Positions 12,806-52,300 of a DNA stretch of 64,000 nt are shown here, piece after piece. A program made the position numbers and the translations under genes. The notes under the pieces are model-generated. The model saw nothing but the letters and a program-made list of their open reading frames with translations, was not told the origin of the DNA and did no database searches. Origin of the DNA: Chiloscyllium plagiosum (Eukaryota); NCBI RefSeq assembly GCF_004010195.1, contig NC_057717.1, forward strand, positions 103,811,179 to 103,875,178, given 5' to 3'. Numbering within the stretch: position 1 is the stretch's first letter; each line of letters starts with the position of its first letter.

Positions 12806-12899
12806 CTGTGAAAGGAAAGGAGGAAGAAAAGTCGGAGACACCTCCATTTGTACAAATTCAGGGCAAATCCTGACACACCGGGGATGTGCAAATTGGTGA

Positions 12900-26600: not shown

Positions 26601-27552
26601 TCAGCATCATACGCACCTAAATTACATCTCTCGTTCTCCTAATCTCCAGAGAGTTTCAGCCAAAACTGCTCGATCTCTCTTCATAAGCCAAACTCCAGTT
26701 AGCCCCTGCTTGTTCCTCATATCCATAGCTTCACACATATCTCAGTATGTCACCTATTTCTCCACTTCCCTTTTGGAAGACACAATTGAATCTCTTTCCA
26801 ACTCTGACGCACCACATTCCAAACCAGAACCATTGAATGGAAATGCTCCACATCATCCCCTTTTGATTCCTTGACCAGCCACCTTCAATATTGTCACCTC
26901 ATTACCAACCCTTTTACCACAAGAAGCAGTCCCTCCCTATCAACTCTATCAGTCTGAGCCTCTCTTTTACATCTCCTCTCCCCTCTCCCTACCCCACTCC
27001 AAAAACAATAATATCAGCCTCTCTTGTCTTTTTCATGTCAGTAGGAACAGGCCATTTAGCCCATCGGTAAGATCCTACTGATCTGATTGCAGCCTTTGTA
27101 TTACCTTCTTCACTGTCCCTCATAATCATGGGCTCTGTTGTCCATCAGAACCCAGTTTAGATTTTTCAACATTTTCAATGACTCCAGTTTCCGCTACTCT
27201 CTGGGCAAGAGATTCCCAAACACTGATGGAAGAAATCTCAGCTCACTGAGGAGTGAGGTAACTACAGGCTTCGAAATTTAATCGAAACCAGGAATCCTTG
27301 GCATCTCATGAGGTATCCGCAGCGCAAATGGTTCTAGAAAGTTCCATTCAGGGAGAGGGTGATGCCAATGGAGAAAAAAAGTGGTGTAGTGCCTCGAGTA
27401 GGCCAGGTCGGTGCCTGTGTGAAATGTTGAAAGACTCTCAAAAAAAATGGTAGTCATTCGTTTCGATGTGTGTGCCTTTAAGGAATGTAATCACGCCATA
27501 TTTTGTTAATAAGTGTGTTTATAAACACTTCTTTTCCCTATAAAACTTTTAG

Positions 27553-27766
27553 ATGGACATTTTCCAGAGAATTTCTCCATCCTAATGACACTGAAGGCCA
27601 AGAAAATGTCTCAGTTTTTCCTGCTGTCCATTTACAATGACCAAGGAATACAACAGCTCGGGGTAGAGATTGGGCGATCTCCTGTCTTCCTTTATGAGGA
27701 TCAAACAGGCAAACCAACCCCTGAGGAATATCCCATCTTCAAAAAAATTAACCTGGCTGATGGCAA
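27553..27766 (+). CDS. Clade-B fibrillar collagen (COL5A3/COL5A1/COL11A-type) N-terminal TSPN/laminin-G domain exon
   Basis: TTTTAG|AT...AA|GTAAGT, 214 bp: (D)[70 protein letters not shown](K). 'GHFPENFS' favours COL5A3. Confidence 0.93.
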
Positions 27767-29926: not shown

Positions 29927-30089
29927 GTGGCACCGCCTGGCGATCAGCGTTGAAGGGAAGAATGTCACGCTGATCATTGACTGCAGCCAGCAGATATCTG
30001 AGCATCTAGCTCGAAGTGACAATCCAGAGATCAGCACCAATGGAATCACCGTGTTCGGTACCAGGATATTGGATGAGGAAGTGTTTGAG
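29927..30089 (+). CDS. Next exon of the same clade-B collagen TSPN domain
   Basis: TTTTGCAG|G...GAG|GTTAGT, 163 bp, phase-compatible with the previous exon: [19 protein letters not shown]...[19 protein letters not shown]. Confidence 0.93.
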
Positions 30090-32553
30090 GTTAGTGTGAT
30101 GGTTTGTCAGCCAATAGAGTCTGGCATGCCTTTGTTTTATTCTGTGGGCTCCCCTTATGTGTCTTTTGGGTCCCCCCCTCCATCAACCAGTAGCTAATCT
30201 CACCGATTCAGACAGAGTGGAAACAAGCCCTCTTACTCGGGGCATGGAGTTGGCAAACCATGTTGCAGCTGTAGAAAGCCCTTGTTAGGCCGCACTTGGA
30301 GTATTGTCTGCAGTTTTGATTGCCACACTACCAGAAGGACGTTGGAAGCTTTGGAGAGAGTGCAGAGAAGGTTCACCAGGATGTTGCCTGGTCTCGAGGG
30401 CGTGGCTGTGGGGAAAGGTTGGGTGGCACGGTGGCTCAGTGGTTAGCACTGCTACCTCACAATGCCAGGGACCCGAGTTCAATTCCAGCCTCGGGCGACT
30501 GTCTGTGTGGAGTTTGTACATTCTCCCCGTGTCTGTGTGGGTTTCCTCCGGGTGCGCCGATTTCCTCTCACAATCCAAGGATGTGCAGGTCAGGTGAATT
30601 GGCCATGCTAAATTGCCCCATAGTGCTAGGTGCATTAGTCAGGGGTAAAGATCGGGACTGTGCACTCTTCAGCAGGTCAGTGTGGACTTGATGGGCCAAA
30701 GGGTCTGTTTCCATACTGTAGGGAATCTATAAAAGAAAGACCAGGATTGTTTTCACTGGAAAGACAGCGGCTGGGCAGAGACCTGATAGAGGGCTACACA
30801 ATGATGACAGGATGGATAGTTTCCCAGGGTTAAAGTTTCAATTACAAGAGGGTATAGGTTCAAGGTGAGAGCGGGAACATTTAAGGGGAGATGTGCGAGG
30901 GAAGGTTTTCACACGGAGAGTGTTAGGAGCCTGGAACGCACTGTCAGAAGAGGGGGGGGAAATCAGGCATATTGGAGACATTTAAGAGGCATCTGGATGG
31001 TTACATGAATAGGGAGGGAATAGGGGGATATTTACAGAATAAGGACAGTTTTTTAGTTTAGTTGGGGCATAATGATTTGCCCAGGCTTAGAGGGCCGAAG
31101 GGCCTCTTTTGTTCTTATGTTTTTGTTAGGAATTTGTAAAATGCCATTTTGACTGACCGTGACTACAAATTGTGTGTCTTTTGAACAAAATACAATGTAT
31201 GTTCTTTTGAGGTTATTCAACTCCAGACCTTTATTTCTGTCATGGGTTTAGCGCAAAATCGATGTTCAAGTGTAGCAATTCTTGGAGAGGGTCAGGGAGA
31301 GCTCCATTTTCACCAGGCTCCAGGCTGAGTGGCGCAAACCATTGAGCAACTCGAGATCACTCACACCTGGGCAGGAGCCTCACTGTTTACTGGGGGATTC
31401 ATAGAGGCAAGCTTCCTTTCAAGCAGCTGCTAAAATCCAGGCCAGTTACCCAGACGGTTCTGCCGATTAACTATATCGCCACAACGTGCTGTGGCGCCCG
31501 GTCACACTGTCAAATGCTCATTACCCCTGGCCAGTGTAGGGAAGTCAACAAATTATCTCCAACTGAGAGAGTGTTTCAAACCGTGTCCGTCACAAAAGTA
31601 TGTCCCCCACTACCAGGGGGATTCCAGAACGTGGGGACCACTGCTGAAAATTCTCGGTGGGGCGAAGGAGAAATTCCTTCCCTCAGAGGTCAGACTATAG
31701 AATTCCGTCCCATAGTGGGTCTTATCAAATATATCCAACACCAATTTAGACAGACGTTTGATTGACGAGGGTGTCAAAGGTTACTGTTGTTGGGGTGGGG
31801 GGGGGACATCTGATGGGAATGAGGAGTGAAGACCACAGTAAGATCAGCCATGATCTTATCAAGTGGCAGAACAGGCTAGAGGGGCCAAATGGCCTACTTT
31901 TCCTCTGATCCCTAACGGGCGGCACAGTGGTTCAGTGGTTAGCACTGCTGCCTCACAGCACCAAGGTCCTGAGTTCGATTCTAGCCTCGGGCGACTCTCT
32001 GTGTGGAGTTTGTTCATTCTCCCCGTGTCTCCGGGTGCTCCGGTTTCCTCCCACAGTCCAAAGATGTCTAGGTTAGGGTGGATTGGCCATGCTAAGATGC
32101 CCATAGTGTTAGGTGCATTAGTCTGAGGGAAATGGGCCTGGGTGGGTTCCTCTTCGGAGGGTCGGTGTGGACTTGGTGGGCCGAAGGGCCTGTTTCCACA
32201 CTGTAGGGATTCTAAAAATCTCATAAAGGGGAATAAATGTGGCATTACAGAACGGTATAGTAAGGGCTGAAGGAAAATCTCAGGGGAAGAGTTTAACTCC
32301 CAATGCCGGGTGTTACATTCCACCTATATATAGGTAGATGACAACTCTGCTCAGAGAAAGTTTAAGGAAGTCACATTTATTGGATTGCAAAGTGTGGTTC
32401 CCAAATTAGACCGGGTTTCCGTGTTTGAAAGGGAGGCGTCTCCATCTCCAACCCATCCTGAACCTGATTTTGGAGTGTTCATCAATGATATTAAGTCGCT
32501 ATAAGGTCCCTTCACCCTACCTGTCACCCTTCACCCTTCACCCTTCACCCTAC

Positions 32554-32624
32554 CTGTCATTTGGAAACTGTGGTGTTTCTGGTTGATTTTGATTCTTCCT
32601 TCGCAATCTTCGAATGATCAGATT
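32554..32624 (-). CDS. RASAL3: Probable RASAL3-like exon NLIIRRLRRKNQNQPETPQFPND(R)
   Basis: Pyrimidine-rich acceptor CTCTTCACTCCTGTTCCAG| and donor AG|GTAGGG; 71 bp. The basic motif parallels 'GLLKRLKEKK' (RASAL3) and 'GFLSRRLKGSIKR' (SynGAP/DAB2IP) at the same exon position. Confidence 0.6.
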
Positions 32625-33139
32625 CTGGAACAGGAGTGAAGAGCGTTAATTCCGCGAGGGCTGGGCCGAGTACACACCCCTCCGAGAGCAACAGACAGCC
32701 TTCAGTCTTTCACACACTGCGGTGATGAATGGAACAGGGTGGGGCAGCGAGGTAATGCCTACTCAGAGAGCAGGGACCTTCCGGAACCCTCTGAGGGCGA
32801 GAGGGGGAAAAGAGAAAGGAGGAGAGACAGAAGGAGAAAGAGGAAGAAAAAAGGGTGAAAGAGGAGAAAGAAAGAAAGTGAGAGAGCGAGAGAGAAAAAG
32901 TCTGGTAGTGTTTTCTGGCACCTGGGGAGTGCATCAATTTTTTTATGTTGGGATGTGTTGATGTCTGTAAGGTGGCCAAGGGGAGGCAGTGTTCGTCCTC
33001 CTGACTTAAAGAGCCGTTCATCCTTCAGGAGAAGATTATGATTTCTTCTAACATTGGTGAACCCCCTGGATTAATCACCAGCATTTTTATTTTTACCTCC
33101 TTAAATGTGGCCTATTTGTGGGAAGTGGGGAGGGGGGTG

Positions 33140-33368
33140 GTGGGGAGAGTTAGCTTCAATGGTTGATTTGCGATGTAGACTGACGCCAACAGTGAGGGGT
33201 CAATTCCAACACCGGCCAAGGTTACTATGAAGGATTCTCCTTCTCAATCTCTCCCCTCGCCTGAGAGGTGGTGACCCTCGGGTTAAACTAACACCAGCCA
33301 TCTCTCCCTCTCTCTCTAATGAAACAGCAGCCCCAGGGTCCTCTGGGACTATGGCGACTTCACTTACT
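33140..33368 (+). mobile_element. Second tRNA-derived SINE-like element
   Basis: Head with A-box-like TAGCTTCAATGG and B-box-like GGTCAATTCC; the body is unrelated to HE1. Confidence 0.45.
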
Positions 33369-33716
33369 AACTATAATCGTTGTGACACACTTGCACACAC
33401 CTGGATTTATTTGGAGCAGCTGGTGAACAGTGAGGTGGGCACAGCGGGTTGGTATTAGGTTTAAGGACCCCCTTTGCACTCTTACAAGTCTGTTCATCAT
33501 TACTGAGGGCTGGAGTCAAATTGTGTACTTTCCACCAAAATCAATTAATCGACAATAAAACAGGAAGTGGCTTCGTGTACTTCGTGTAACTTAACTAAAA
33601 ACAACTTTATAACCCACAGAAATCTGTACTGCCTTGCTGTAATAACTACGAACAGCAGTGAGAACACCAGAGTGATGATTTTAGTACTTCTGATAAGATA
33701 TCACTAAAGAATGCAA

Positions 33717-34045
33717 GTGTGCGTGTGAGAGTGTGTGTGTGTATGTGTGTGTATGCATGCGTGTGTCTGTATGTGTGTGTGTATGTGCAAGTCTGTGTGT
33801 ATATTTGTGTACGTGAGTGTATGTATGTGTGTGTGAGAATGTGTGTATGTGCACGTGAGTGTGTGTATAAGAGTGTGAGTGTGTGTGTGTAAGTGTGTGT
33901 TTGAGAGTGTGTGTGAGAGTCTGTGAATGAGAGAGTGTGTGTGTGTGTGTCTGTATGTCTGGGTGAGTGTGTGTGCGTGTGTGTGTGTGAGTAAGTGTGA
34001 GTGAGTGAGTGAATAAGTGAGCGAGTGAGTGAGTGAGTGAGTGTA
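33717..34045. repeat. Degenerate (TG)n/(GTGA)n microsatellite
   Basis: Directly visible. Confidence 0.95.
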
Positions 34046-34961
34046 GATAAGATCAACTTAAGAGACTATATTTCCCCAAGGCCATGTTAATGGGAGTTAT
34101 GTCAGACCAGGGGATCTGGAATGTGGGCCCAGTACATTCCAAACCCTCAGCCACTACCACCAACAGGACAACAGCAGCAGAGACATGAATACACCAGACC
34201 CTTTATTGTTCCCTCCAAACCACATACCATTCGGATTTGGGAATAGCTTGTTCTTCCCTCACCGTCTCTGGGTCAAAATCCTGGAACTTGCTCCCTAATA
34301 GCACTCTGTGTTTTGTTCCTACATCCCAGGAGGGCAGTGGTTCAAGAAGGCAGCTCACTGCCATTTTCTCAGGGGGCAGCTAGGAAGGAGTGACTAACTC
34401 CAGCCTTGTCAGTGACACCCACAGCTTGTGGAAGCATTTATTTCCAAAGAAAAATCAGAAACCCTGAGCTTGTACATGGAACATAGAACATTCCAGCGCA
34501 GTACAGGCCCTTCGGCCCTCGATGTTGCACCGACCTGTGGAACCAATCTGAAGCCCATCGAACCTACACTATTCCATTCTCATCCATATGCCTATCCAAT
34601 GGCCATTTAAATGCCCTGTAAAGTTGGCGAGTCTACTACTGTTGCGGGCTGAGTGTTCCACACCCCTACTAATCTCTGAGTAAAGAGTCAAAGAGGTTGT
34701 GGTTTCTTCCTATGTTTGAGACATTGAGTCTGACGTTTAGTTGTGGGCAGGAACTCTTGATACATTCTTAAAGGAAAAGCCAAATGCGAGATGAGGAACT
34801 TCAGTTTCAGGCAGACAGAAAGGAGAAGCTGAGGGTGGTGTCCTGAGAACTGGGAGGGTGCAGAGGAAATTGAAAAGGGATGGTCAAAACTAGCACAGGC
34901 TTCCGTTCGAGAGAATCGAGGGAAATTATCTGGAGGGTTCACAACTGGAGGATTCAATCAG

Positions 34962-35595
34962 TAGAATCCCTACAATGTAAAAACAGGCCCTTCGGCCCAA
35001 CAAGTCCACGGGCAGCATGGTGCCTCAGTGGTTAGCACTGCTGCCTCACAGCACCAGGGACCCGGGTTCGATTCCAACCTCAGGCGACTCTCTGTGTGGA
35101 GTTTGCACATTCTCATCGTGTCTGCGTGGGTTCCCTCCGGGTGCTCCGGTTTCCTCCCACAGTCCAAAAATGTGCAGGGCAGGATGGATTGGCCATGCTA
35201 AATTGCCCGTAGTGGTAGGTACATTAGTTAGAGGGAAATAGGTCTGGGTGGGGTTACTCTTTGGAGGGTCAGTGTGGACCAGTTGGGCTGAAGGGTCTGT
35301 TTCCACACTGTCGGGAATCAAAAAGCCCTCCAAAGAGTAACCCACCCAGACCCATTCCCCTACATCCACCCCTGACTAATGCACCTAACTGACACATCCC
35401 TGAACACTATAGGGCAATTTAGCACAGCAAACTCACCCTAACCTGCACATCTTTGGATCTTGGGAGGAAACGAAAGCACCCAGAGGAAACTCACACCGAC
35501 ACAGGGAGAACATACAGGCACCACATAGATAGTCCCCGAGGCTGGAATCGAACCCAGGACCAGTGAGGCAGCAGCGCTAACCACTGTGCCACCCC
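34962..35595. mobile_element. Minus-strand HE1 SINE with a plus-strand HE1 SINE (~35009-35320) inserted into it
   Basis: The host SINE tail breaks at CAAGTCCAC and resumes at CCCTCCAAAGAGTAACCC after the inserted copy. Confidence 0.8.
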
Positions 35596-35919
35596 AAATC
35601 ACTGGCTAAAAGAACAGGAGGAGAGATGACCAGCAGATTCTGGATGTTCAGAGGGTTGTTAGGGTCTGAAACCGACTGCCTGAAGGGGCAGGGGAATGGT
35701 TATTGTCAAAAGGGAATTGGATACAGGTTTTGCAAGGGGGAGGGTTTACAGGAGACGGGGCAGAGGACTGGGGATAACGCTAACAGAGAGCTGGTTTAAA
35801 CGCAATCAGTCTCCATAACAACCAGAAACGAGTGATTCAAATCAACACAAAACAAACACAGAAGAAAGAAGGTGTTACTCGCGATGGCACCCAGTGTGGA
35901 ATAGCTCGAAGCAACTTAC

Positions 35920-36097
35920 CTTCACGTTGTTCACTGGGCGCTCGCCAGTGCCTCCTGCCCGTTCCAATTTCCTCACAGAAGCTGGGCTCCTTTTGCCAGG
36001 TACAGAGTCTAAGGGAAGAGACAGACTAGGGTCAAGAGGAACCTGGTTGAGGTTAACTTTGATCAGCTCTTCCTGTGGCATGGACCCCTCCAAAGCC
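35920..36097 (-). CDS. RASAL3: Probable upstream coding exon of the RASAL3-like RasGAP (region N-terminal to the PH core)
   Basis: Acceptor ...CTGCTTCAG| and donor AAG|GTAAGT. The 178-bp exon reads (x)ALEGSMPQEEL...GTGERPVNNVK, whose end resembles RASAL3 '..QVHNVR|GLLKRL' as recalled. Its phase-0 exit fits the next exon. Confidence 0.6.
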
Positions 36098-36624
36098 CTG
36101 AAGCAGCAGGGAGAATCTGCAAATCCCCGTCCACCCCGATTCACCCACAATCCCCGTGCCCACTGACTCGCACGGCATTTTCCCTCCAGTTGTGCCTCAG
36201 TTTAAAAAACATCCACCTCCCCACCCCCCCCCGACCACGTCCAACCGGACAATCTACACAGACATCAACACACCTCCATCTCCAGCACACCCCTGACCTC
36301 CACGGCCCCACTCACAGAGTGCTCAGAGCGGGGGCTTTCAAGGTGGAGAGGGAGGGATGGCAGCTGGGGAACCAGTCAGCCGAGGACGGAGTAGATTGAC
36401 ATGGGACATGCAGAGGATTGCCAGCCTGGAGGAGGGCAGAGGGGTGGTGATGGAGGAGGTGACAGCGATATGGAGGGGGTGTAGGGGATGGAGAAGATGA
36501 CAGCGATAGGGAGGGGGTGTAGGGGCTGGAGGAGGTTATAGAGATAGGGAGGGTGTGTAGGGGATGGAGAGGATGACAGCGATAGGGAGGGATGTAGGGG
36601 CGGGAGGAGGTTACAGAGGTGGGG

Positions 36625-37588
36625 ATGTCCCTCAGTTAGACCCACACTGGGAGCACTGTGCACAGTTCCGGTCTCTATGTCCCTCAGTTAGACCCACACT
36701 GGGAGCACTGTGCACAGTTCCGGTCTCTATGTCCCTCAGTTAGACCCACACTGGGAGCACTGTGCACAGTTCCGGTCTCTATATCCCTCAGTTAGACCCA
36801 CACTGGGAGCACTGTGCACAGTTCCGGTCTCTATGTCCCTCAGTTAGACCCACACTGGGAGCACTGTGCACAGTTCCGGTCTCTATATCCCTCAGTTAGA
36901 CCCACACTGGGAGCACTGTGCACAGTTCCGGTCTCTATATCCCTCAGTTAGACCCACACTGGGAGCACTGTGCACAGTTCCGGTCTCTATATCCCTCAGT
37001 TAGACCCACACTGGGAGCACTGTGCACAGTTCCGGTCTCTATATCCCTCAGTTAGACCCACACTGGGAGCACTGTGCACAGTTCCGGTCTCTATGTCCCT
37101 CAGTTAGACCCACACTGGGAGCACTGTGCACAGTTCCGGTCTCTATATCCCTCAGTTAGACCCACACTGGGAGCACTGTGCACAGTTCCGGTCTCTATAT
37201 CCCTCAGTTAGACCCACACTGGGAGCACTGTGCACAGTTCCGGTCTCTATATCCCTCAGTTAGACCCACACTGGGAGCACTGTGCACAGTTCCGGTCTCT
37301 ATATCCCTCAGTTAGACCCACACTGGGAGCACTGTGCACAGTTCCGGTCTCTATATCCCTCAGTTAGACCCACACTGGGAGCACTGTGCACAGTTCCGGT
37401 CTCTATGTCCCTCAGTTAGACCCACACTGGGAGCACTGTGCACAGTTCCGGTCTCTATATCCCTCAGTTAGACCCACACTGGGAGCACTGTGCACAGTTC
37501 CAGTCTCTATATCCCTCAGTTAGACCCACACTGGGAGCACTGTGCACAGTTCCAGTCTCTATATCCCTCAGTTAGACCCACACTGGGA
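36625..37588. repeat. 52-bp minisatellite, ~18.5 near-identical copies
   Basis: Unit (A/G)TCCCTCAGTTAGACCCACACTGGGAGCACTGTGCACAGTTCC(G/A)GTCTCTAT; period measured 36627->36679. Confidence 0.97.
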
Positions 37589-40286
37589 ACATTGAGGGTT
37601 GGAATCAGAGTGAGAAAGGGCTGTAAACATTTACATAACAAGAAAAATTCACAAATGCCCTGAGTATCTTTGAGTCTGTCCCATAGGGAGGGGGTGCAGT
37701 GGCTGGAGGAGTGGACAGAGATAGGGAGGGGGTGCAGGGGCTGGAGGAGATTTCAGAGATAGGGAGGGGTGTAGGGGCTGGAGGAGATTACAGAGATAGA
37801 GATCAGGGTAGGGACTAGGAGGGTATAGCGAGTGATGGAAGGCAGCTATTTCCATTCTGGGACATGGGCTATTGTCATGTAACTGTCCTTAAGGCACACT
37901 GTCTGATTGCTCCTGAATCTCCTGGAATGGCCAAGGTCAGTGAAGATGTCACAGAGAAGCATGGCGAACAGTGCCTGTGTTTCACTCCTCACCCCCACCC
38001 TGCGGACTGCAGGCAGCCTGTGGTAGGGATACACTCGCGATATGTGGTCAGTGCTTCCTGTTTACACTCTCCTGCTGGTCTAGGTCAGTGGAAGACAGCC
38101 AAAGTGGTTTCTCAATGATTACAGAGCGTCAACAACCTGCATTTCCATAGCACCTCTGATGCAACACGATGTCCTGACTCACTTCCTTCCAATAAAATTT
38201 GGAGGTAAGACTACAATTTGGGCGGGTGACCAAATTCTTGGTCGGCGAGGTGGGTTCTTGAAGCATCTCAGATGGGGAGAGTGAGGATTCAGGAGGGAGT
38301 CACGTCAGGGCTGCTGGGGAAGGCCAGGATGAGGGGAACGGTGTGAGCTCAGAGGGACTGGGAGACCTCCAGAGAGAAGGAGGGATAAGGACATGGTGGG
38401 ACCTGAAACAGAGGTGATCATCTGAAAAATCCAGAACTGTTTGACCAACATTAAAGTATTGGACAGTGAGCAGAGGGGAGATAGAGGGACCAGAGAGTGC
38501 CCAAGTCTGGGCACAGGCAGTGGGATACTGAACAAGAAATGGGTTTGGAGAGAGTGGGAGTTGGAAAATGGAGTGTCATAGAGCAGCCAGGGCTAATGGT
38601 AACAAAGATACAGCTGATGGGGTCAGCAGGAGATGAGCTGACTCAGGGGGCAGAACACCGGCTTTGCTTTCAAAATTAATATTGACATTTTAACAGGACT
38701 TTTAGATAAGTGCATGAATATGCAAGGAATGGAAGGGGTACATACCAAGGGCAGACAGAAGGGGTTAGTTTAATTTGGCATCACATTGGGCACAGCACTG
38801 TGGGCTGAATGACCCGTTCCTGTGTTGTACAGTTCTATGTTCTCCCAACATTCCCATTCCTCCAAACTGCAGCCTGCGCACAGGACCAATAGAGGTTTCT
38901 GATCTCATGGATGGGTTAACATGCTGCCTTCTGGGAGATGGGTTAATGGGTATCTAACGTATAGATCCTGCACGGTCCTCAAAATCGATAGCAAGGTGGA
39001 GGGTGAGTGCACCCGGAAATTCCCCAGCTCTCGATCCATCCCCCATACCTCTCTGCCCCACTCCCAACTCCCCTTTCGGCTGAAGCCACGAGCGGGTTAC
39101 GGAATGGGAACAGAATATACGGGAACATTTCCAGGATGGGATTGGTTCAGCCCCTCCCTGTGGGGAGGTAGCCAGTGCTCAGAAAGTCAGGCGGGTCACA
39201 TCAATGGCCAATTGAGCTGAGGCTTTATTATCACATGAATACAATGTAAAGTTCACACATCACTACTTAAGGCGCCATCTTAGGTACAAGGTACCTAGGT
39301 ACAGATCCTTCAGGGCGAGTTCTTCAGAAAGATAAAATAGAAGAGTAAAGAAATAAAAAGTCCAGCCCCATGGGAATAAATTAGAGAATAGAGAAATCTA
39401 AAATTCAGAAAGACAGTCCTTCCAACACAGTCCACAAAAGCAATCAGTCCCACTTTTCAACCAAGTGGTGATTGGCCAGACAGGATTTTCACCAGTGAGC
39501 AGCAAGAGGCTTATCTGCATGAATGTCTCATTATCCGGTCTCACTGAGACAGCAGTTACCCATCCTCCCATTGTGCCTGTTCCATCTCTTTGACAGAGCA
39601 AGCTAACACGCCCCCACAAATGACCCCTTTTCGATCTACGCTTTTAAAAATCACTCACAGACCTCATTCCAAGCATACTGCAATATATAGGAGCAGAATT
39701 GGGCCATTCAACCCATCAGGTCTGTTCCGTCATTCAGAGAGTCATAGAGTCATACAGCACGGAAACAGACTCTTCGGTCCATCTCACCCATGCTGACCAA
39801 GTTTCCCAAACTAAACTCGTGCCATTTGCCTGTGTTTTGCCCATACCCTTGTTAACCCTTCCTATTCATGTCCCTATCCAAATGTCTTTCAAACGTTATA
39901 ACTGTATCTGCATCTACCACTTCCTCTGGCAGCTCATTCCACACACAAACCACCCTCTGGGTGAAAAAGCTGCCCCTTAGGTCCCTTTTAAATCTTGCCC
40001 CTCTCACCTTAAACCTATGCCCTCTTCCCCCACCCTAGAGAAAAGACCTTTGCTAGTCATTTTATCCATGCCCCTCATGGTTTTCTAAACCTCTATAACA
40101 TCACTCTTCAACCTCCTGCACTCCAGTGAAAAAAACTCCCAGCCTCTCCTGATAACTCAAACCCTCCATTCCAGACAACATCCTGGTAAAACGTTTCTTA
40201 ACCCTCTCCAATTTAATAATACCCTTCGCAAAGCAGGGTGTACAGAGTATCTGGCCTCAGCAACGTTCAATTCTGGCTGACATGTT

Positions 40287-40378
40287 TCCTGAAGAAGGGC
40301 TTATGCCCGAAACGTCGATTCTCCTGTTCCCTGGATGCTGCCTGACCTGCTGCGCTTTTCCAGCCACACATTTTCAGC
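40287..40378 (+). ncRNA. Short Penelope-derived repeat with a hammerhead-like core (same core at 61587-61620; variants at ~4787-4820(-), 10791-10828, 46383-46418, 50629-50660)
   Basis: CTGAAGA-A-GGGC(TTAT)GCCC-GAAA-CGTC at 40289-40316. Confidence 0.55.
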
Positions 40379-42949
40379 GCTGACATGTTTCTCAACCCCA
40401 TTCTCCTGCCTTCTCACAGTAATCCTTGATCCCCTTATTAATCAGGAACCTATCTGTCTCTGTCTTATACACACTCAATGACTTGGCCTCCACAGCTCTC
40501 TGTGGCAATGAGTTCCCGAGATTCCCCACCCTCTGGCTGAGGAAATTCCCCCTCCTCTCAGTTCTAAAGGGTCATCCCTTCACCCTGAGGCTGTGCCCCC
40601 GGCTCCTGGTCTCTGCTACTGGTGGAAGCATCTTTTCCACTATCCTCTCAGTATTGTGTAAGTTACAATCAGATTCCTGCCCACCCTTCTAAAATCCATC
40701 AAGTACAGATCCAGAGTCCTCAACTGCTCCCCATACGACAAGCCCTTCATCCCGGGGATCACTCTTGTAAACCTCCTCTGGACCCCCCCTCCAAGGCCAG
40801 CACACCCTTCCTTCGATATAGAGGTTTCCCAAAAACAGCAAAGCAGTCCCAAGTTGATGGATCATTGGTTGGTTCAGAGGCAGAGAGAAGACATTTAATA
40901 AGCTCTCACTACAATGCATGACCTGATTATTATCAAGCTGGGGATGTTGTGTTTCACCAGGATGAGATGAAGTTGAGTGGGTGAAGGTTTACGAGGAGCA
41001 CCAACATTGAATTAGATGAGCTGAACGGCCTGTTTCCGAGCTGTAGACTCAGTATGATTCTGGGTGGTGGGGTTGGTAATCTGAGTTGTGCCCACTGTGA
41101 GGAGCCCGGGCACTCTATCCCATTCCAAAACCAGGTGACAGCAGAGTAGTCCATCAGAAAAAAAAACACATCAGTGTTTTTTAGCAGATGCTGCTGCAAA
41201 TGAATTTCGCTGAGGTGAAGCAAATTATGTCTTGTAGATACAATCTCAAAGAGGTTACCACGTGTCCTGATAGATACTGTGGGGAGGAAATGGTGAGTGA
41301 TTAAATCAACTGACTGAGCTTCCAGTTAATCTCAAAATGCAGGGAAACACCAGCCTCAGTAACAATCAAGCATTCAGCATTTGCAAGCCCTTGCACCATT
41401 CATATTGCCTCAAATGATTGGTTAGACAACCTTCAGCTCATTAGAGACCAGAACGCCATACGATATAGGAGCAGATTTAGGTCATTCACCATGTTGAGTC
41501 TGCCTGCTATTTGATCATGGCCGAAATACTTTTCAATCCCGTTCTCCTGCCATCTCCCCATAACCCTTGATCCCCTTACTGATCAAGAACCTGTCTGTCC
41601 CTGTCTTAAACACACTCAGTGACTTGGCCTCCACAGCTCTCTGGGGCAATGAGTTCCCAAGATTCCCCCCACTCTAGCTGAAGAAATTCCTCCTCATCTC
41701 AGTTCACCCTGAGGCTGTGCCCCCGGGTCCTGGTCTCTCCCACTGGTGGGAATATCTTCTCCATGTCCTCTCTATCCAGGCCTCTCAGTATTCTATAAGT
41801 ATCAATCAGATCTCCCTCATCCTTCTAAACAGACCCAGAGTCCTGAACCTCTCCTTATATTGCAAGCCCTTCATACCCAGAATAATTCTTGCAAACTTCC
41901 TCTGGACTCTCCCCAATGCCAGCTCATCCTTTCTTAGATACAGGGTACAAAACTGTTCACAATATTCCAAATGCGGTCTGACCAGAGCCTTATACAGCCT
42001 CAGCAGTACATCCCTGTTCTTGTATTCTAACTCTCTTGAAATGATTGCTAACAATGCATTGGCATTGGCCTTCTTAAAAGTCCACTGAACCTACATGTCC
42101 ACCTTAAGAAAATCCTAAACTATAACTCCTCAGTCCGTGTGTGCTTCAGATTTCTGAAGCCTTTCCCCATTTAGAAAATAGTCTACGCCTCTATTCTTCT
42201 TACCACACTGTACTCCATCTGCCACTTCTTTGCCCACTCTCCCAGCTTGTCCAAGTCCATCTGCAGCCTCCCCCATTTCCTCAACGCTATCTGTCCCTCC
42301 ATATATCTTGTGTCATCTGCAAACTCAGTAACAATGCCCTCAGTTCCTTTGTCCAGATCGTTTAGTGTGGGAACATGAATAGTTGTGGTCCCACACAGAC
42401 CCCACTGGGTGTCCATCAGTCACCAGCTGCCAACCTGAAAAAGATTCCCTTATCCCCACTCTATGCCTTCTGCCAGTCAGCCAATCCTCTATCCACATCA
42501 GTGATGCCTCCAGTCGGGATCTTCATCCCTCAGAAGGGCACAGGTCCCACATGAAGCTCATATTCCAGGCTGGCATTCTCGGTGCAGTACCGAGGGACTG
42601 CTGCACTGCCGTGGGTGCTGTCCTCCTAATGAGATGCTAAAGCACAGCTCTGTCTGTTCTCAGGTGGGTGTGAAGCAGACTTCGCAAAACGTTGTCCCAC
42701 AGTGACACAATGGTGAGAATTGAAGTGTGTGACTTACTGTAAGTGAGGTAGAGGTCAGAGGGGGATGTTAAAGAAAATTGGGAGAGTGGTGGGGAAGAAG
42801 TCAGGATGGACTCTGTGGAAGTACGGGGCTTGTCTTTTGGAGCAGGTGCCCCGTTGTTCTAACTCCACCTGGGGGCACGACCCCCATTTTGGGACTCCCC
42901 GGATGTACAAGATTGAATGTCACTATTTGCTGTTAAATTCTTCCAACGT

Positions 42950-44450
42950 AGTGGGTTTTGAGAAGATTTGTAGCTCACGTTGAGGTTCTGGATGTAGGTT
43001 TGCTCACTGAGCTGGAAGGTTCATTTCCAGACATTTCATCACCATACTAGGTAACATCTTCAGTGGGCCTCAGGCGAAGTAATGCTGATGGTTCCTGCCC
43101 TCTATTTACATGTTTGGGTTTCTTTGGGTTGATGATGTCATTTCCTGTGATGATGCCATTTCCTGTTCTTTTCCTCAGGGGGTGGTAGATGGGGTCCAAG
43201 TCAATATGTTTGTTGGTAGAGGTCCAGTTGGAATGCCATGCTTCTAGGAATTCTCGTGCGTGTCTCTGTTTGGCTTGTCCTAGGATGGATGTGTTGTCCC
43301 AGTCGAAGTGGTGTCCTTCCTCATCCGTATGTAAGGATACTAGCAAGAGAGGGTCATGTCGTTTTGTGGCTAGTTGGTGTCCATGTATCCTGGTGGCCAG
43401 TTTTCTGCCTGTTTTTCCGATGTAATGTTTGTTACAGTTCTTGCACAGTATTTTGTAAGTGACATTCGTTTTGCTTTTGTCTGTGTAGGGTCTTCCAAGT
43501 TCATTAGCTGTTGTTGGTGGGTTTGAGTAGTCTGGCAGTCATTTCTGAGTTGTCTTTGATGTATGGGAGAGTAGTTAGGGTTTCTGGATGTGTTTTGTCT
43601 GCTCGTTTGGGTTTGTTGCTGAGAAATCGGTGGACTGTGTTCACTGGGTACCCATTCTTTTTGAATACACTGTATAGGTGATTTTTCTCTGCTCTGCGTA
43701 GTTCCTCTGTGCTGCAGTGTGTGTTGACTCGTTGAAATAATGTTCTGATGCAGCTCCGTTTGTGGATGTTGGGATGATGGCTTCTTAGTTCAGGATTTGG
43801 TCCGTATATATGGTTTTCCTGTAGACACTGGTTTGAAGTTCCCCATTGGCTGTCCGCTCGACTGTGACATCTAGGAATGGTAGTTTGTTGTTGTTTTCCT
43901 CCTCTTTAGTGAATTTTATGCCAGTAAGGATATTATTGATGGTCTTGAAGGTTTCCTCTAATTTGTTTTGTTTAGTGATGACAACGGTGTCATCCACATA
44001 GTGAACCCAGAGTTTGGGTTGGATGGTTGCCAGAGCTATTTGTTTGAGTCTCTGCATTACTGCCTCTGCTAAGAACCCTGATATCGGAGATCCCATGGAT
44101 GATCCGTTGGTTTGTCTGTAGGTCTTGTTATTGAAGGTGAAGTGGGTGATAAGGCATAGGTCCACTAGCTTGATGATATTGTCCTTGCTGATGAGGTTGG
44201 TGGTGTTTGGTATATGTGTCTTTGGTTCTTCTAATAGTGTAGTCAGTGTTTCCTTGGCTAGGTTGATGTTGATGGATATGAACAGGGCTGTTACATCAAA
44301 GGAGACCATTATTTCATCCTCTTCTATCTTGGTGTCTTTGATTGTCTTCAGGAATTCTTGGGTGGAGTGGATGGAGTGGCGTGAGCCTTCTACTAAGTGT
44401 TTCAGTCTTTGGTGTAGCTCCTTGGCCAGTCTGTAAGTTGGTGTTCCAGT
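42950..44450 (-). mobile_element. Penelope-like element (RT + GIY-YIG remnant, 5' truncated) with terminal repeat
   Basis: MVSFDVTALF...YRQTNGSSMGSPISGFLAE...YVDDT...LPFLDV...VYRK, plus C-terminal HHFDWDNTSIL...REFLEAWHS. Confidence 0.92.
43027..43066 (-). ncRNA. Putative minimal type-I hammerhead ribozyme in the Penelope terminal repeat
   Basis: Minus strand reads CCA-CUGAAGA-U-GUUACC(UAGUAU)GGUGAU-GAAA-UGUC-UGG: both catalytic boxes, stem II, a 3-bp stem I (CCA/UGG) and a GUC triplet. Confidence 0.6.
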
Positions 44451-47400
44451 ACCATGATGAAATGTCAGTTTAGTTAGCTGTGCTCAATCCGACAGACCGA
44501 TTTGAAACCACACCTTCAAAGATAACAGAGTTCTCAGTTGTGCTGTCAAAGGGTGGTGGGTATCAACTAAAGTTTTGATTGTGCCCCTAAAATAGACACG
44601 GGCTGAAACTGTGGTCAGTGGGTGAGGAGGCATATGCGTGTCATGTGTGATTCTGTAAATAAATATTTATAAAGGTGCGTAAAAATTATACCTAGCTCAC
44701 CAACTGGCTCTTGGGAGTTTACAAAGTGCTACACCTTGAGAGCAGACCAGACAATTCTCCTCTCAGTCATTAATAGAGTCTGCACTGCTATTTGGGCCTG
44801 AGATTGTGTAAGGTAGCTATCCTCCATTTAGGGCATTTTACTGGAGAAATAAAGTCATAGAGTCATGGAAACGTACCCATCGGTCCAACCAGTCCGTGCC
44901 GATCATAATCCCAAAGTAAACTAGTTCCCACCTGCCTGCTCCTGGCTCATATCCCTCCAAACCTTTCCTGTTCATGGACTTATCCAAATGGCTTTTAAAC
45001 GTTGTAACTGTCCCCATATCCACCACTTCCTCAGGAAGGTCATTCCACACACAAACTGCTCTCTGTGTAAAATAAATTGCCCCTCACGCCATACGGCACT
45101 GAAGAGACCCATTAAGTCAGCACCAACCTATCTCCACTCATCCCACTTCCCAGTACTTGGCTTTAATTTGCAAACCTTACCACAGTTTATACAGAATCCA
45201 GTTAGAGTTATAAGTTATAATTACGGCACAGAAGGAGGCCATGCAGCCCTTCAAGTCGATGAAAGCCCTTTGTTGAGCAATCCAGCTTAGTCTAGTCCCA
45301 TGCTCTACCCCTGCACGTCTATTTCCTTTTAGAAAGATTGATCGCCTCTGATCCCACCATCCTTGTAGACATGGTCATTGTTACTCATGATATTAACAAG
45401 ATGTCTTCATATCACACACACCCACCCCATATTACTCACCATGAAATCCGGGTTTCCTGGTCAGCACATGGGGACACCTTTCCTTTGTCTACCTCACGTA
45501 AGCCTGGCACACTCTTATGCACAGATCAACTAGGCAGAAGGGAGGACTGCAGATGCTGGAGATTAGACTCAAGATTAGAGTGTTGCTGGAAAAGCACAGC
45601 AGGTCAGGCAGCATCCGAGGAGCAGGGAATTCAACGTTTCAAGCAAGCCTGAAACATCAATTTTCCTGCTCCTCGGATGCTGCCTGACCTGCTGTGCTTT
45701 TCCAGCACCACTCTAATCTACACTCTAGTGCACCTCAGTGTAACAGAGTCACAGAGCTGTACAGCATGGAAACAGAGCCTTCAGTGCCAACCAAATATCT
45801 GAAATTAATCTTGTCCCACTTGTCAGCAGCTGGCTCATATCCCTCTAAACCCTTCCTGTACCCATCCAATTTTATGTCAAACTCCTTTGCTCTGAGCAGG
45901 ACAACTGCAGCTTCTCCAGCCAGACCATGTGGACCTCCCATCCCTGAAGACATTCGGGGAAAAGACGCCTGCTTCCTGTTTGCAGTGAAATGGTCTTGGT
46001 TTGCTAGGAGGCCCTTTATAATTAAGGGCAGCGCGGTGCCTCAGTAGTTAGCCCTGTTGCCTCACAGCGCCAGGGACACGAGTTCGATTCCGGCCTCGGG
46101 CGACTGGCTGTGTGGAGTTTGCACATTCTCCCTGTGTCTGTGTGGATTTCCTCCGGGTGCTCCAGTTTCCTCCCACAATCCAAAGATGTGCAGGTCAGGT
46201 GAATTGGCCATGCTAAATTGCCCATAGTGTTAGGTGGATTAGTCAGAGGGAAATGGGTCTGGGTGGGTTACATATTGGAGGATCGGTGTGGACCTGTTGG
46301 GCCGAAGGGCCTGTTTCCACACTGTATGGAATCTAATCTAATAATGGAGGGGTCTCACCACCACCTCGGCTCATAGCCTCATTCCTGATGAAGGGCTTTT
46401 GCCCGAAATGTTGATTCTAAGATTTACATGGATATTGCCAGGGTTGGAGGATCTGAGCTACAGGGAGAGTCTGAACAGCTGGGGCTGTTTTCCCTGGAGC
46501 TTCGGAGGCTGAGGGGTGACCTTTTTTTTAGATTACATTACAGTGTGGAAACAGGCCCATTGGCCCAACAAGTCCACACCGACCCGCCGAAGCGCAACCC
46601 ACCCATACCCCTACATTTACCCCTTACCTAACACCGCGGGCAATTTAGCATGGCCAATTCACCTGACCTGCACATCTTTGGACTGTGGGAGGAAACCAGA
46701 GCACCCGGAGAAAACCCACGNNNNNNNNNNNNNNNNNNNNNNNNNNNNNNNNNNNNNNNNNNNNNNNNNNNNNNNNNNNNNNNNNNNNNGATGGGTATAT
46801 GAATAGGAAGGGTTTGGAGGGATATGGGCCGTGTGCTGGCAGGTGGCATTAGATTGGGTTGGGATATCTGGTCGGCATGGACGGGTTGGACCGAAGGGTC
46901 TGTTTCCGTGCTGTACATCTCTCTGACTCTCTGACTCTCTGACTCTATGCTGCCTGACCTGCTGTGCTTTTCCAGCACCACCCTCTCAACTCTGACCTGC
47001 TGTGCTTTTCCAGCACCACCCTCTCAACTCTGAACTCCAGCATCTGCAGCCCTCACGTTCCCCTCCGATGGAAACACTGCCACCAGTTTGCAGGCTGAAG
47101 CGGCACTTCCTCCAGGTACACGAGCAAGTGCAACAACCTTTTACCTCAGAAAGACGCCCTCCCCCTCAGTCTCACACGTTTCTTTCTCAGACGTTGCTGT
47201 GTGCACTAATAACACACAACATGCCTGCAGAGCCAATCTCACAGCAGACGAGACAAGCAACTTGAGTAACACATTACTCATGAGTGATGTTACAACAGCT
47301 TAGCTAATGCGAGAGAGGACAACCAGTCAGATCCCAAATTCCCGCAGCAAGAGGTTTTGGCAAAAAGATAAACAGGTGTTAAATTTATCACGCTCATCAG

Positions 47401-49074
47401 CCGAATCAAATTGGGTCTCAATCCAGGATGTCTCTGAGTGCTCACTGACTATTCAGTGGCTGGAGCCCACACGTCCTTATAGAGACTTCCCCCTGAAACT
47501 ACTCCAGGACTTACCAAGTTCAGGGAAATACAAAACTTATCAAAGGCAGAGCTGACAAAGCAAGATCACAAAGGAGGAACTGGTGACTTTCACAAGCTGA
47601 GGCTGACTGGAGTGACTTCCAGGAAATGATGTCGTTTCAAAGTGCTGCCACTGTTGTCGAGAAGTCTGATAGCCACAACAAGATCTCCACCCAAACAGCT
47701 GTGTGCTCATGCACCAGATCATCTTTACCCGTTCGGCTGCTCCTGGGATGATGGGGAGAACTCCTGTCACTTGGGAGAAATCATTGCCAAACAAGGTTGC
47801 GGGGGGTTGGGGTGGACTCATGGTGGGAGGAGAGAAACACAGTGGCAATTGTGGAGTTCACAACAAATATGGTGATGGGGAGGGGGTTGTGGAGTCTCAA
47901 GGCATTTTGGGAGTATGCAGAACAGCATGGGGGAGGGGGGGGTTATTGACCGCGACCCCACACACTGGTCTCCACCGCAGGAGCACGGAGGACCAGGGTG
48001 GGGGTTATTTAGGTGTAATGCTGGGGTTCAGGGGCAGGGAGGACAGCTATTGGTGTTGTTCGATGTGATGGGTCTCCACATCAGGGGTGGTGGGATGGGG
48101 ATGGATGGAAATGAGCTGCTGGGGTAGTACAAGGTAGAAGGGCTGAACAGTCACTGGACTCGAAAAGTTGTCTCGGTTTTCTCTCTCCACAGACAATACC
48201 AGACCCTCCAATAATTTCTGTTTTTGACTAAATTGGTTCCTGGCCTGTGTGTGATGTTCGTCTACTGGATTATGACAACCTGCTGGTCTCCAGTGGGCAT
48301 TGGATGAGGCGCAGGGTGTTGGTGATCTAGGGATGGCATGTAGACTGTATGCCCTGGTGATTAAACAGTGGGTGTATGAGACAGGGAGTGGGATGGGCGC
48401 TGTGGCTTTGTGGCTGCTATGTTCTACTGCGTTGCCAACGAGATGGGTCGCCAACACTTAGCTGGGTTCACAGTGGCCTTTTTAAAGAAGACGCAGAGTT
48501 TTAGCAGCAATGCGGTGAGTGCTGAGTTGTTTCAGCACTGACAAGTGGCAGAATGGGGCTGGGATCAGGACAGGGGGGGGTCACCATAAGTGGTCGGGTA
48601 GTTACTGAGGTACGTTCGTTAAGGCACGTCAAGAAAACACATGGGGCTCCACAGCAAGAACACCCCACCCCCCGGGAAAAAACATTGATGATACTGACAC
48701 TTAGCTAAAAATAAAACGTGAGATTCCTCCTCATACTTCTCAGTTTGTATCTCTGGTCCTGGTAAACAATGAATACAGGCGCCTCACAAACCCACTTCTT
48801 CTCACAGATTGTTTTGTTTCGTTAATAATATCACACTAGGGTACTTGTTCACCATGTTCTGATGCAACAGCACAAACATAAAAATTAGCAAAGCTCATGC
48901 TAAAAGACTTACCATCTCTCAATCAGGAATCAAACTGGCTTCCACAACCTCAGTTAGAAGTCAACTGCAGTAATTATTTCATGAAAAACTTCTGCCATAG
49001 GTCTGTTCCATTGCCCTCACTATCTCCATTTAGCTTAATAATTAGTTCTGTGGTAAATTAAGAAAGGTGATGGT

Positions 49075-49375
49075 TTGCACGCCTATAGTGCCTACACCTC
49101 ATCTTCTGCCTGGGCAGCCTACAACCTGGAGGACTCAACATTGAGTTCTTCAATTCCAAATAACCTCCCTCCTCATCCCCCGACTCCCTTCCCAGCCCCT
49201 CCCCCTCCCTTCCACTGCTCCCTGCCACCAACCGGATTCATTCCTCCCACTGCCAGTTCCGAAGAAGGGTTATACCCGAAATGTTGACCTCTCCACCTCC
49301 TGATGCTGCCTGGCTTGCTGTGTTCTTCCAGTCTCCTGCCTGGATATCTTTGGATTCCAGCATCTGCAGTTTTTT
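49075..49375 (+). mobile_element. 3' end of a Neptune-type Penelope-like element with a degenerate hammerhead core
   Basis: LGSLQPGGLNIEF (GIY-YIG C-terminal motif) then a stop, followed by GTT-CCGAAGA-A-GGGT(TAT)ACCC-GAAA-TGTT-GAC and the CAGCATCTGCAG tail. Confidence 0.7.
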
Positions 49376-52300
49376 TTTAAACTCTCACCCTCAGAATGCA
49401 CTTCTGAGGTATTGTAATGTGGGAGGTTCAGCAGTCAATGTGCAGGCAGTAAACGCCAATACGATAATGACAAAATATTCTCAGGGTTTTAAATGAGATA
49501 AAAATTGACCAGGACACCAGTGAGAAATCGATTGTTGTCTTTAAATTTTGCTACGGGATTATTTAAAGTCCATTTTCTTAGCCAGATGGTGCCTAGTTTA
49601 TGTTTCTCATTCAAACAGCAGTACCCTGCAGTGTGCCACACTCCCTAGGTACTGCAGTGAGATCAGGAGCTGAGATATGAGTGGCTCAGTGATAAGCACT
49701 ACTGCCTCACAGTACCAGGGACTCAGGTTCAATTCCTGCCTCGGGTGACTGTCTGTGTAGAGTTTTTACATTCTCCCCGTGTCTGCGTGGGTTTCCTCCC
49801 ACAGTCAACAGATGTGCAGGTCAGGTGAATTGCCCATAGTGTTAGGTGTATTAGTCAGGAGTAAATGGAGGGCAATGGGTCTGGGTGGGTTACTCTTTGC
49901 AGGGTTGGTGTGGACTTGTTGGGCCAAAGGGCCTGTTTCCATACTGTAGGGAACCTAATCATATTGCCTGTCCTCATCCTCTAGAGCAGTGGTTTAACCC
50001 AGCACCTTCTGACTCACAACTGAAAGCAACATGTACAGAGTCATGGCTGAATGAAACCAAGAAAGGATATGCAACCATCTCTGTCTTCTCTTAGACTGTC
50101 TATTGTAATTGTTTCTTTAACCTCTTGTTTGACTACTTTTGAAGTTAAATGGACATTTTGTTATTTAGTCCCTCTCCACACAGTTCCATTCTCGAACACT
50201 CGGAATCTCTTCCCATTTATTCATGTTGCTGGCTGGGTCAACATTAATCGCCTGTTCCTACTTGCTCTGGAGTGCTGGTGGGGAGCTCCACCCTACAATT
50301 ATGATGGTCCAGGCAGCGTAGGAACACTGGGATTGTAATAAGAGTGCAACACTGCAGTACATCTTGTGCATGAGTGCACGAGTGGTGAATGCTGAATGTG
50401 GTGGATAGGGTGTTAATCAAGCTGTTTGCTTTGCCCTGAATGATGTCAAACCTCTTGAGTGTTGTTGGATCTGCATCCATCCAGGCCAGTGGGGAGTATT
50501 CCATCACCCTCCTGACTTGCTCCTTATAGATGGTGAACAGGCTTTGGGGAGTCAGGAAGTGAGTCATTCGTTGCAAGATTCCTAGCTTCTAACCCACTCT
50601 TGTCGCTGTTGTGTTTATGTGGCTTCATTCCTGATGAAGGGCTTTGGCACAAAACATCAATTTTCCTGCTCCTGAGATGCTGCCTGACCTACAGTGCTTT
50701 TCCAGCACTACGCTCTCAACTCTAATCTCCAGCATCTGCAGTCCTCACCTTCGCCTATTTAGGTGGCTAGTCCAGTTGAGTTTCTGGTCAATAGTAACCC
50801 CCTGCATGTTGATGTTAGGAGATTCAGTGATGGTAACACCATTGAATGTCAAGGGGTGATGGTTAGTTTCTCTCTGATTGGAGAGGGTCATTGGCTGGCA
50901 TATGTCTGGTATCAGTAATGCTTGTTTTTGTGGTGTACCCCCAATTGATCTTCAAGATTTCCCTCGCACATTAGCCATCGCTAAGCTTCTACCTTAGCCC
51001 TTACCTCAGCCTCAGTCGTCCCCTTGACCCAATATCGTTTTCCTTACTTGTTTGATGATCTTCAAATACTCACCTAGCGTTGCAACCGATTCCTGTTATC
51101 TAACTATTTCACTGCTCTCATACTCTCAACCACGCAAGTTCAACTTTTTTACACAGAGGGCGGTTTGTATGTGAAATAATCTGCCAGAGGAAGTGGTAGA
51201 TGTAGGTATAGTTACAGCATTTAAAAGATATTTGGACAGAAACATGAACAGGAAAGAGTTAGAGAGATATAGGCCAAATGCAAAGGCAAATGGGACTAGT
51301 TTAGTTTTGGAAACCTGGTCAGCATGGGCAAGGTTGCACCAAAGGGTCTGTTTCCATGCTGCATGATTCTATGACTTACTGGATTCCATTCCAGAGGTTG
51401 TCGTGAGAAGATGATCTCTGGGTTGCATCCAGGGCTTATATTGCAGTTGCACTGACTGTCACCCGAAGGCTCCAGTGAATTTAGCTTGGGAAGTCAGCTT
51501 CTTACGCACAACCTAATTTCTGATCTGGCTGAAAAGTTGCTGATGAGAGAATGAATGTGCCAGGGCGGGGAAGTCCCACTCTCGATCACGTCAGGGTAAT
51601 ACCAGACGGAAGACCAATCGGCCCATTGAACCTGGGCTAGTACTGGAATAGAGCTGATGAACTCATCCTTCTCCCCCATTCTTTCCCCATTGCAGTTTGT
51701 TTTTTAATCAAATATTGACCTAAGTCCGTTTTTCGCATTGAAACTACAATTGGCAGGATTCTTTCAGGTAGCACTTCTGAGACCATAACCCACTGAACAA
51801 GCCAATCATCTCCCTTGCTGCTTCTTCCACAGTAAATCTGTGCACCCGACCCTCTCACCGCCAAGGGCAAACATTTTCTTTGCATTTACTCAATCGAAAC
51901 CACTCATAATCCTGGACGTCATTATCAAATGTCCTCAGTCTGCTCTCTTCTAAGGAGAAAGTGAGGACTGTGGAGCTGGAGATCAGTCGAAACAAGTAGC
52001 GCTGGAAAAGCACAGCAGGTCAGGCAGCATCTGATGGAACCTGACCTGCTGTGCCTATCCAGTGCCACACTTTCTGACTCTATTCTAAGGAGACCAACAT
52101 TAGATGCTCCAGTATCTCTACATCATTCAGCTTCTTCATCCCTGGTACTCAAGGTTAGAGTGGGAGTAGGCAATTCAGCCCATTGAGTCTGCTCCACCAC
52201 GCAATGAGATCCTGACTGATCTGATCATCCTCAACTCCACTTTGTTGCTGGTTCCCCCCATTACTCTCAAATCCCTCACTGACTAAAACATCTCAGCCGT

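Follow-up and report, generated by a model that had tools for sequence, protein, structure and literature searches.

The stretch of DNA analysed here (the window: 64,000 nt of Chiloscyllium plagiosum, contig NC_057717.1, positions 103,811,179 to 103,875,178) holds a gene for a RasGAP of the nGAP/SynGAP family, read on the minus strand, together with a family of short dispersed repeats that carry a minimal hammerhead ribozyme core. The exons of the gene were mapped from 55834 down to 4216 (residues 74-120 unmapped), and its C2 exon is 99% identical to that of an nGAP-like RasGAP of Chiloscyllium punctatum. The copies of the repeat family, two pieces of Penelope-like elements (PLEs) and the host gene are placed as follows (a pseudo-LTR is abbreviated as pLTR; head-to-head pairs have no single strand):

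4216..55834, minus strand: host gene, an nGAP/SynGAP-family RasGAP, of which 14 exon pieces were placed by means of a Chiloscyllium protein
4688..4821, minus strand: solo tailed copy with damaged stem II; a target-site duplication was looked for and none was found
10764..10917, no single strand: older-subfamily copy whose stem II is GGUC/GACC and whose inverted 5' arm is short
19840..19969, minus strand: old decayed 5'-truncated copy with a 12-bp exact duplication
22958..23174, no single strand: head-to-head inverted pair, tail on the right arm only, 8-bp duplication
24507..24598, plus strand: 5'-truncated tailed copy without hammerhead, 15-bp duplication
26376..26602, no single strand: head-to-head inverted pair, both arms beginning 3 nt ahead of the core, tail on the left arm only, flanking repeat of 14 bp with 2 mismatches
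29377..29565, no single strand: old decayed head-to-head pair with a 9-bp flanking repeat
40276..40288, plus strand: left target-site duplication of the 40.3-kb copy, 13 bp
40289..40378, plus strand: the 40.3-kb copy flagged by an earlier, sequence-only reading; a solo, tail-less pLTR-end insertion, antisense within host intron 1
40289..40316, plus strand: perfect minimal hammerhead core of that copy (CUGAAGA, bulged A, 4-bp stem II, GAAA, palindromic ACGU)
40379..40391, plus strand: right target-site duplication of the 40.3-kb copy, 13 bp
42950..44483, minus strand: separate, unrelated, decayed 5'-truncated PLE, its reverse transcriptase (RT) and GIY-YIG domains broken by stops and frameshifts
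45534..45727, no single strand: head-to-head inverted pair, truncated within stem II and without the CUGANGA box, tail on the left arm only
46377..46420, plus strand: hammerhead-only fragment, CpG-decayed, GAAAUGUU
46946..47064, plus strand: piece of the body without hammerhead, containing an internal tandem duplication of 38 bp
49089..49163, plus strand: last 24 codons and stop codon of an ORF from a Neptune-type PLE, corresponding to the end of its GIY-YIG domain
49164..49375, plus strand: older-subfamily copy (the 49.3-kb copy) with a C-rich 3' UTR of 95 nt, after which come a decayed hammerhead (starting at 49259), the body and the tail
50625..50756, plus strand: solo tailed copy with damaged core, 11-bp duplication with 1 mismatch
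51959..52077, no single strand: head-to-head inverted pair without hammerhead, of which the left arm alone is tailed, flanked by a 16-bp repeat that has 1 mismatch and an exact stretch of 11 bp
61535..61547 and 61712..61724: 13-bp duplications of the 61.6-kb copy
61548..61711, plus strand: longest main-subfamily copy (the 61.6-kb copy), with 40 nt of upstream UTR, a perfect core (61588-61615), body and a 35-nt tail (61677-61711)

A family profile built from six window copies returned 25 matches at E<=1 across the 64-kb window, of which 22 are family segments (at 15 loci, all with E<=0.0012) and the remaining three are noise (E>=0.4; the best E in five shuffled windows was 0.035). The sequence-only reading had described a repeat recurring more than 10 times, which this count bears out, and all eight intervals that it named belong to the family; several of them, given there as single copies, are really head-to-head inverted pairs. 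The full motif that it ascribed to the best copies is present at 40289 and 61588, but only these two of the 12 heads listed are perfect, and the named example at 45534-45725 is without the CUGANGA box. The pairing-compatible variants of stem II are likewise present, as GGGT/ACCC (49267-70/49274-77) and GGTC/GACC (10803-06/10811-14), but in copies that are otherwise damaged (a CCGAAGA box and a G-A mismatch closing stem II). The 61.6-kb and 40.3-kb copies share 96.9% identity across 98 nt. By extrapolation, 15 loci per 64 kb would probably amount to hundreds of thousands of insertions genome-wide. Other repeats of the window comprise a 52-bp tandem array at 36628-37588 (18.5 copies, 99% identical, with 38-bp G-rich tandem repeats on either side) that looks very young, a large recent inverted duplication (1334-2012 and 2694-3379) whose arms measure 411 and 285 nt and show 96-97% complementarity, and another abundant dispersed repeat, ~300-400 nt long and tRNA-like at one end (e.g. 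15169-15489, 46026-46338 and 61941-62116), which we presume to resemble the shark HE1 SINE.

With respect to the host gene, 14 of the 15 loci lie between mapped coding exons, in agreement with the intronic setting proposed earlier, and the exception is the 61.6-kb copy, which is located upstream of the first mapped coding exon. This placement, along with the occurrence of family sequences in RNA reads of both strands, could be taken to favour a co-opted intronic ribozyme that cuts the RasGAP pre-mRNA, but the strands speak against such a role: the perfect cores at 40289 and 61588 and the near-intact one at 46385 all have antisense orientation relative to the gene (plus strand), all four heads in sense orientation (4816, 23048, 26499 and 29510) are damaged, and the nearest same-strand cores are 6 kb apart. 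We therefore regard co-option as scarcely credible.

The 40.3-kb copy had been delimited as 40287-40378, an interval that does hold a family copy, although the insertion proper extends from 40289 to 40378, its 5' end being the first C of the CUGAAGA box. The motif CTGAAGA-A-GGGC-TTAT-GCCC-GAAA-CGTC was located exactly at 40289-40316 and at 61588-61615 (0 occurrences in 100 shuffles), the core at 40289 scores E 1.4e-10 with a covariance model, and the predicted cut falls after 40316, the very GUC position that had been put forward. The caveat that stem I is weak in this copy was well placed: it has just 2 bp, and because the insertion occupies 40289-40378 between the 13-bp duplications, no more than 3 nt of its 5' strand match the element. 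We take the 40.3-kb copy to be a recent passenger without a tail, in all likelihood inert.

The anatomy of the insertions is that of separately integrated copies. Exact target-site duplications of at least 11 bp flank 5 of the 15 loci (compared to 4 of 294 random sites, p=1.5e-5), repeats of 8-11 bp were found at three further loci and the 14-bp repeat with 2 mismatches at one, while at 6 of the 15 loci no duplication of at least 7 bp was detected near the ends, and at one more only an internal 7-mer. Moreover, the empty site of the 61.6-kb insertion is present in public contigs (joint 61534>61712). Head-to-head inversions with variable junctions make up 6 of the 15 loci, the other nine being single-armed. 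The 35-nt tail is optional (carried by the 61.6-kb copy and missing from the 40.3-kb one), there being two alternative 3' ends that are 35 nt apart, and all four main-family head-to-head pairs carry it on one arm only. As the six palindromic loci fold as long hairpins, a MITE or fold-back DNA transposon, within which the hammerhead would be incidental, might be envisaged; we deem this very improbable, considering that the arms are unequal and their junctions variable, that nine loci have a single arm, that the duplications measure 8-15 bp, and that one copy is preceded by the end of a PLE ORF. Matches to miRNA families in Rfam were rejected as spurious, for they arise from the hairpins of the inverted pairs and fall below the gathering scores.

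The sequence-only reading had called the family retrozyme-like. A head-to-tail hammerhead tandem occurs at none of the 15 loci and in none of the 33 tandem-repeat rows of the 64-kb window, where the sole tandem within the family is the 38-bp body duplication without hammerhead, and the defining layout of retrozymes is therefore absent from the window. Descent from a non-LTR retrozyme, the tandem monomers of which would be cleaved by dimeric hammerheads before circularisation and reinsertion, would account for the type I hammerhead, the small size and the lack of coding capacity, and a preprint (bioRxiv 10.64898/2026.07.22.740005) describes retrozymes of one chondrichthyan, with solo monomers as their offspring. 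Against it stand the missing tandems, a minimal motif without stem III that is situated at the head of the unit, the finding that no window copy starts at the cut site, and the ORF link, optional tail and inversions, so that we judge such an origin to be very unlikely. The retrozyme label thus does not suit copies that are solo or head-to-head, flanked by duplications, optionally tailed and, in one subfamily copy, attached to a PLE ORF end; the broader proposal of a high-copy retrotransposed hammerhead family is sustained by the 15 loci, the target-site duplications and the Penelope-type minimal type I hammerhead.

A strict minimal-hammerhead descriptor found four matches in the window (40289, 46385 and 61588, and 43063 on the minus strand), compared to 0.03 expected from 100 dinucleotide shuffles, and a covariance model made from 62 non-shark motifs gave its best scores in the window to ten family heads (E between 1.8e-11 and 0.24), its match to the core being partly by construction. 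Both perfect copies have the palindromic ACGU without helix III and would need a dimer to fold, as had been recognised. An Rfam scan, of the kind proposed as a check, gave 19 matches at E<=5, none of them to a hammerhead family, and the folding energies are ordinary (0 of 9 pieces beat their shuffles, z from -1.3 to +0.7); we infer that both results follow from the lack of helix III. In the main subfamily, stem I consists of C-G, U-A, U.U and A-U (i.e. 2 bp, a mismatch and 1 bp), in the older subfamilies of 3-4 bp, and the hammerhead shape has an energy of -5.8 kcal/mol as compared to -9.7 for the minimum-energy fold.

Within the 62 non-shark motifs, stem I (which lay outside the search pattern) covaries at all four pairs, with a score of 0.434 versus 0.132 in shuffles that leave relatedness in and at most 0.077 when slid. 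Non-CpG mismatches in the window copies amount to 4/102 in the core versus 98/1064 downstream (p=0.096, a difference short of significance, in a comparison biased by local-alignment ends), CpG positions of the core are decayed at 11/48, and the best-supported contig variants among those listed affect N7, loop II and CpGs, the other core bases being spared. Since opposite-strand pairs provide one hammerhead per strand, they cannot provide a dimer within a single RNA. By analogy with published motifs, the shark hammerhead would cleave only as a dimer or with the help of a protein. No pile of RNA ends was seen at the cut site in one fragmented single-cell poly(A) run (a weak test). In that run (X21), 3332 reads aligned on both strands and 95% of them continue into unlike sequence, which fits passengers inside longer transcripts (poly(A) libraries miss circles); downstream (3') of about 61620, one of its read directions gains about a factor of two over the DNA profile, a rise that we do not count as evidence because either cleavage or 3' library bias could cause it. 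Run X22 yielded 0 aligned reads, and runs X18-X20 were set aside for their small word share.

The association with a PLE comes from the 49.3-kb copy, where the stop codon of the ORF remnant precedes the hammerhead core at 49259 by 95 nt. The remnant at 49089-49163, initially picked out by a motif, ranked first among 3029 six-frame segments when these were compared to a profile of PLE ORF ends (E 2.7e-7, the next at 0.55), a profile that is partly circular because its peptides were chosen with the motif first tried on the window, and the whole proteins of relatives match it by tblastn (E 0.001 and 0.009). On its own, the 24-codon piece has no Pfam match. A looser core pattern, applied to metagenome contigs that appear to be animal host DNA, gave at least 122 loci and at least 127 matches, and in 30 of the 127 matches listed the same ORF end is found 92-164 nt upstream, as compared to 8 of 748 control positions (at least 200 nt of upstream sequence were available in 109 of the 127). 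The shark body was matched by none of the at least 122 loci listed, and the exact shark core pattern had 0 matches in viral and prokaryote contigs. Furthermore, 3 of 7 metagenome ORF pieces match the Pfam GIY-YIG domain, and full-length relatives of these ORFs combine RT and GIY-YIG. A CxxC (zinc-finger-like) linker before the endonuclease, given as a mark of the Neptune and Nematis clades (PMC8557442), is present in the relatives P0001-P0007 and is shown by the two longest ORF pieces; the shark remnant is too short to span it.

On sequence grounds, the join to an ORF (to its end only) holds for the 49.3-kb subfamily, to which the main subfamily would be tied indirectly, via 77% identity across 79 nt. 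For the main subfamily, the upstream extension in contigs reached no ORF, and the upstream UTR motif derived from those contigs has no match within the window. A frame running from an ATG at 61634 through the tail was considered as the start of a PLE ORF and rejected as unsupported, two protein searches having yielded no homologue; the frame (61634-61711, plus strand) is open across body and tail in several main-family copies, one of which has a 3-nt insertion. In five metagenome contigs (L032, L038, L072, L092 and L101) each strand has one such core, the two forming a head-to-head pair or standing on either side of inverted PLE ORF ends; with such pairs in animal-derived contigs, the architecture is therefore not confined to sharks but extends well past them. 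The unrelated PLE at 42950-44483 has its own near-intact minimal hammerhead at its 3' end (43024-43069, of a different family, with a 6-bp stem II), in sense orientation relative to the host intron, and we would assign the element to the Penelope/Poseidon type because no zinc-finger linker was seen.

Taken together, the separate duplicated insertions, the variable 5' truncation, the inversions, the two 3' ends, the hammerhead at the head and the ORF join make it very probable that the repeats are 3' end pieces (pLTR and optional tail) of Neptune-type PLEs, copied by the RT/GIY-YIG protein of the element. According to this model, the protein would make staggered cuts in the target, reverse transcription would begin at one of two internal RNA sites (by analogy with the behaviour in vitro of PAc, a PLE of the anole) and would usually halt or switch strand after 90-170 nt. 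The hammerhead would be kept up in the source elements, and the inserted copies would be decaying passengers whose CpGs, those of the core included, go fastest.

The distribution of 5' ends is a counterpoint to this model, as it is sharper than random truncation predicts: among the main-family arms that keep the first box, 7 of 8 begin 3-8 nt upstream of the core. The pile could be due to a short RNA starting from stem I, to an RT stop or to a favoured strand switch. A refinement compatible with an origin from PLE ends would be that most copies derive from a short RNA beginning at stem I of the hammerhead, i.e. from a SINE-like, non-autonomous unit made of the pLTR only and mobilised by the PLE protein, instead of from random truncation of full-length RNA. 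In line with it, contig depth drops upstream of the core (~15M at the core itself, 2.9M at 61572-80, 1.0M at 61554-62), unrelated flanks precede 61584 in 371 contigs, and the 5' ends of non-shark families are spread more broadly (at most 15 nt in 22/84, beyond 60 nt in 35/84, by a crude, ungapped tally in which indels shorten and palindromes lengthen the measured distance). However, the 61.6-kb copy and at least 114 contigs reach further upstream (public DNA contigs continue past 61552 with a single C-rich consensus, agreement 0.8 in 114 contigs, and show a sharp element end at 61712), six other arms begin downstream of the box, an RT pause at a structure or a preferred strand switch would give an equal pile, and one fragmented poly(A) run (a weak test) had no pile of RNA starts. 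We put the refinement forward as a tentative idea, less likely than not. In run X2, joints from 61615/61618 (at or beside the predicted cut site) to 61584-61585 (the start of the unit) were the top listed joints with inserted letters; they may reflect rare copies having an end or a start at the cleavage site.

A further-reaching version, about which we are slightly more doubtful, is that the shark pLTR has become a very high-copy SINE-like non-autonomous element, the RNA of which begins at stem I and serves the Neptune protein as a template without being cut. If true, the hammerhead would mark or define the 5' boundary of the RNA (as a promoter element or as an RT stop signal), with a weakened stem I that needs no cleavage, and a pLTR would have given rise to a non-autonomous element by a linear route that involves no tandems, unlike the circular one of retrozymes.

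As it stands, the family adds sharks to the hosts of a described motif, the minimal hammerhead in the pseudo-LTRs of Penelope elements. Among papers, judged from titles and the openings of abstracts, none was found on a hammerhead-Penelope family of sharks or other elasmobranchs; one review came up, in which 'shark' denotes the shape of a ribozyme, and a whale shark paper counts Penelope among its repeats. The insertions constitute a record of the start points of reverse transcription, with two ends 35 nt apart, and of its stopping points, which lie a little upstream of the hammerhead and do not coincide with the cut site; this record bears on the role of the hammerhead in the PLE cycle because, as described for PAc (PMC11167929), cleavage is dispensable for insertion in vitro.

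Minimal hammerheads are known from the pLTRs of metazoan PLEs, with Neptune, Poseidon and Xena among the reported carriers (Cervera and De la Pena 2014, PMC4209133), where they are mostly single and attributed to truncated PLEs, some forming pairs on opposite strands, and where cleavage is described as poor even as dimers. The shark motif resembles them in being of type I without helix III, in the bulged base after A9, in the G10.1-C11.1 pair and in the palindromic ACGU, and its CUGANGA and GAAA-N-N-UH boxes, stem II and bulged base are perfect at 40289 and 61588. It differs in its stem II of 4 bp (as compared to 7-8 in the Schistosoma families) and in the weak, mismatched stem I of the main subfamily, helix I of this class having 4-5 bp; no mention of shark was found in the portions of the text and supplement of that study that were searched.

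Animal retrozymes, for their part, are presented as units repeated head-to-tail, each with a hammerhead of the canonical kind (Cervera and De la Pena 2020, PMC7229834; Li et al., bioRxiv 10.64898/2026.07.22.740005), the preprint also admitting minimal motifs if in tandem, and reporting retrozymes from the one chondrichthyan that it sampled, with solo monomers counted as offspring. In common with non-LTR retrozymes, the shark family is short and non-coding, has a type I hammerhead, and shares the proposed origin from a pLTR and the dependence on a PLE protein; unlike retrozymes, which are described as mostly having canonical hammerheads and being expressed as circular RNA, it has a minimal motif and no tandems in the window.

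There is also a close likeness to the endonuclease-bearing PLEs, for which 5' truncation, an adjoining inverted copy and an optional tail of 30-40 bp have been described (PMC8557442; PMC3846280; PMC8969392). In PAc, the tail is reported to be the stretch between two internal start sites of reverse transcription (Frangieh et al. 2024, PMC11167929), and the motif to cleave only in the presence of the protein, insertion in vitro being independent of cleavage. As in the Neptune clade (Craig et al. 2021, PMC8557442; Arkhipova et al. 2013, PMC3846280), the accounts of which match the shark copies in these respects, we find heavy 5' truncation, head-to-head inverted truncated copies, an optional tail at one end, target-site duplications (8-15 bp here, as compared to 8-10 in the rotifer examples given) and the end of a GIY-YIG ORF upstream of the pLTR. 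What sets the shark family apart from the Neptune elements so described is that nearly all of its copies are the pLTR alone, and that their 5' ends pile up just upstream of the hammerhead.
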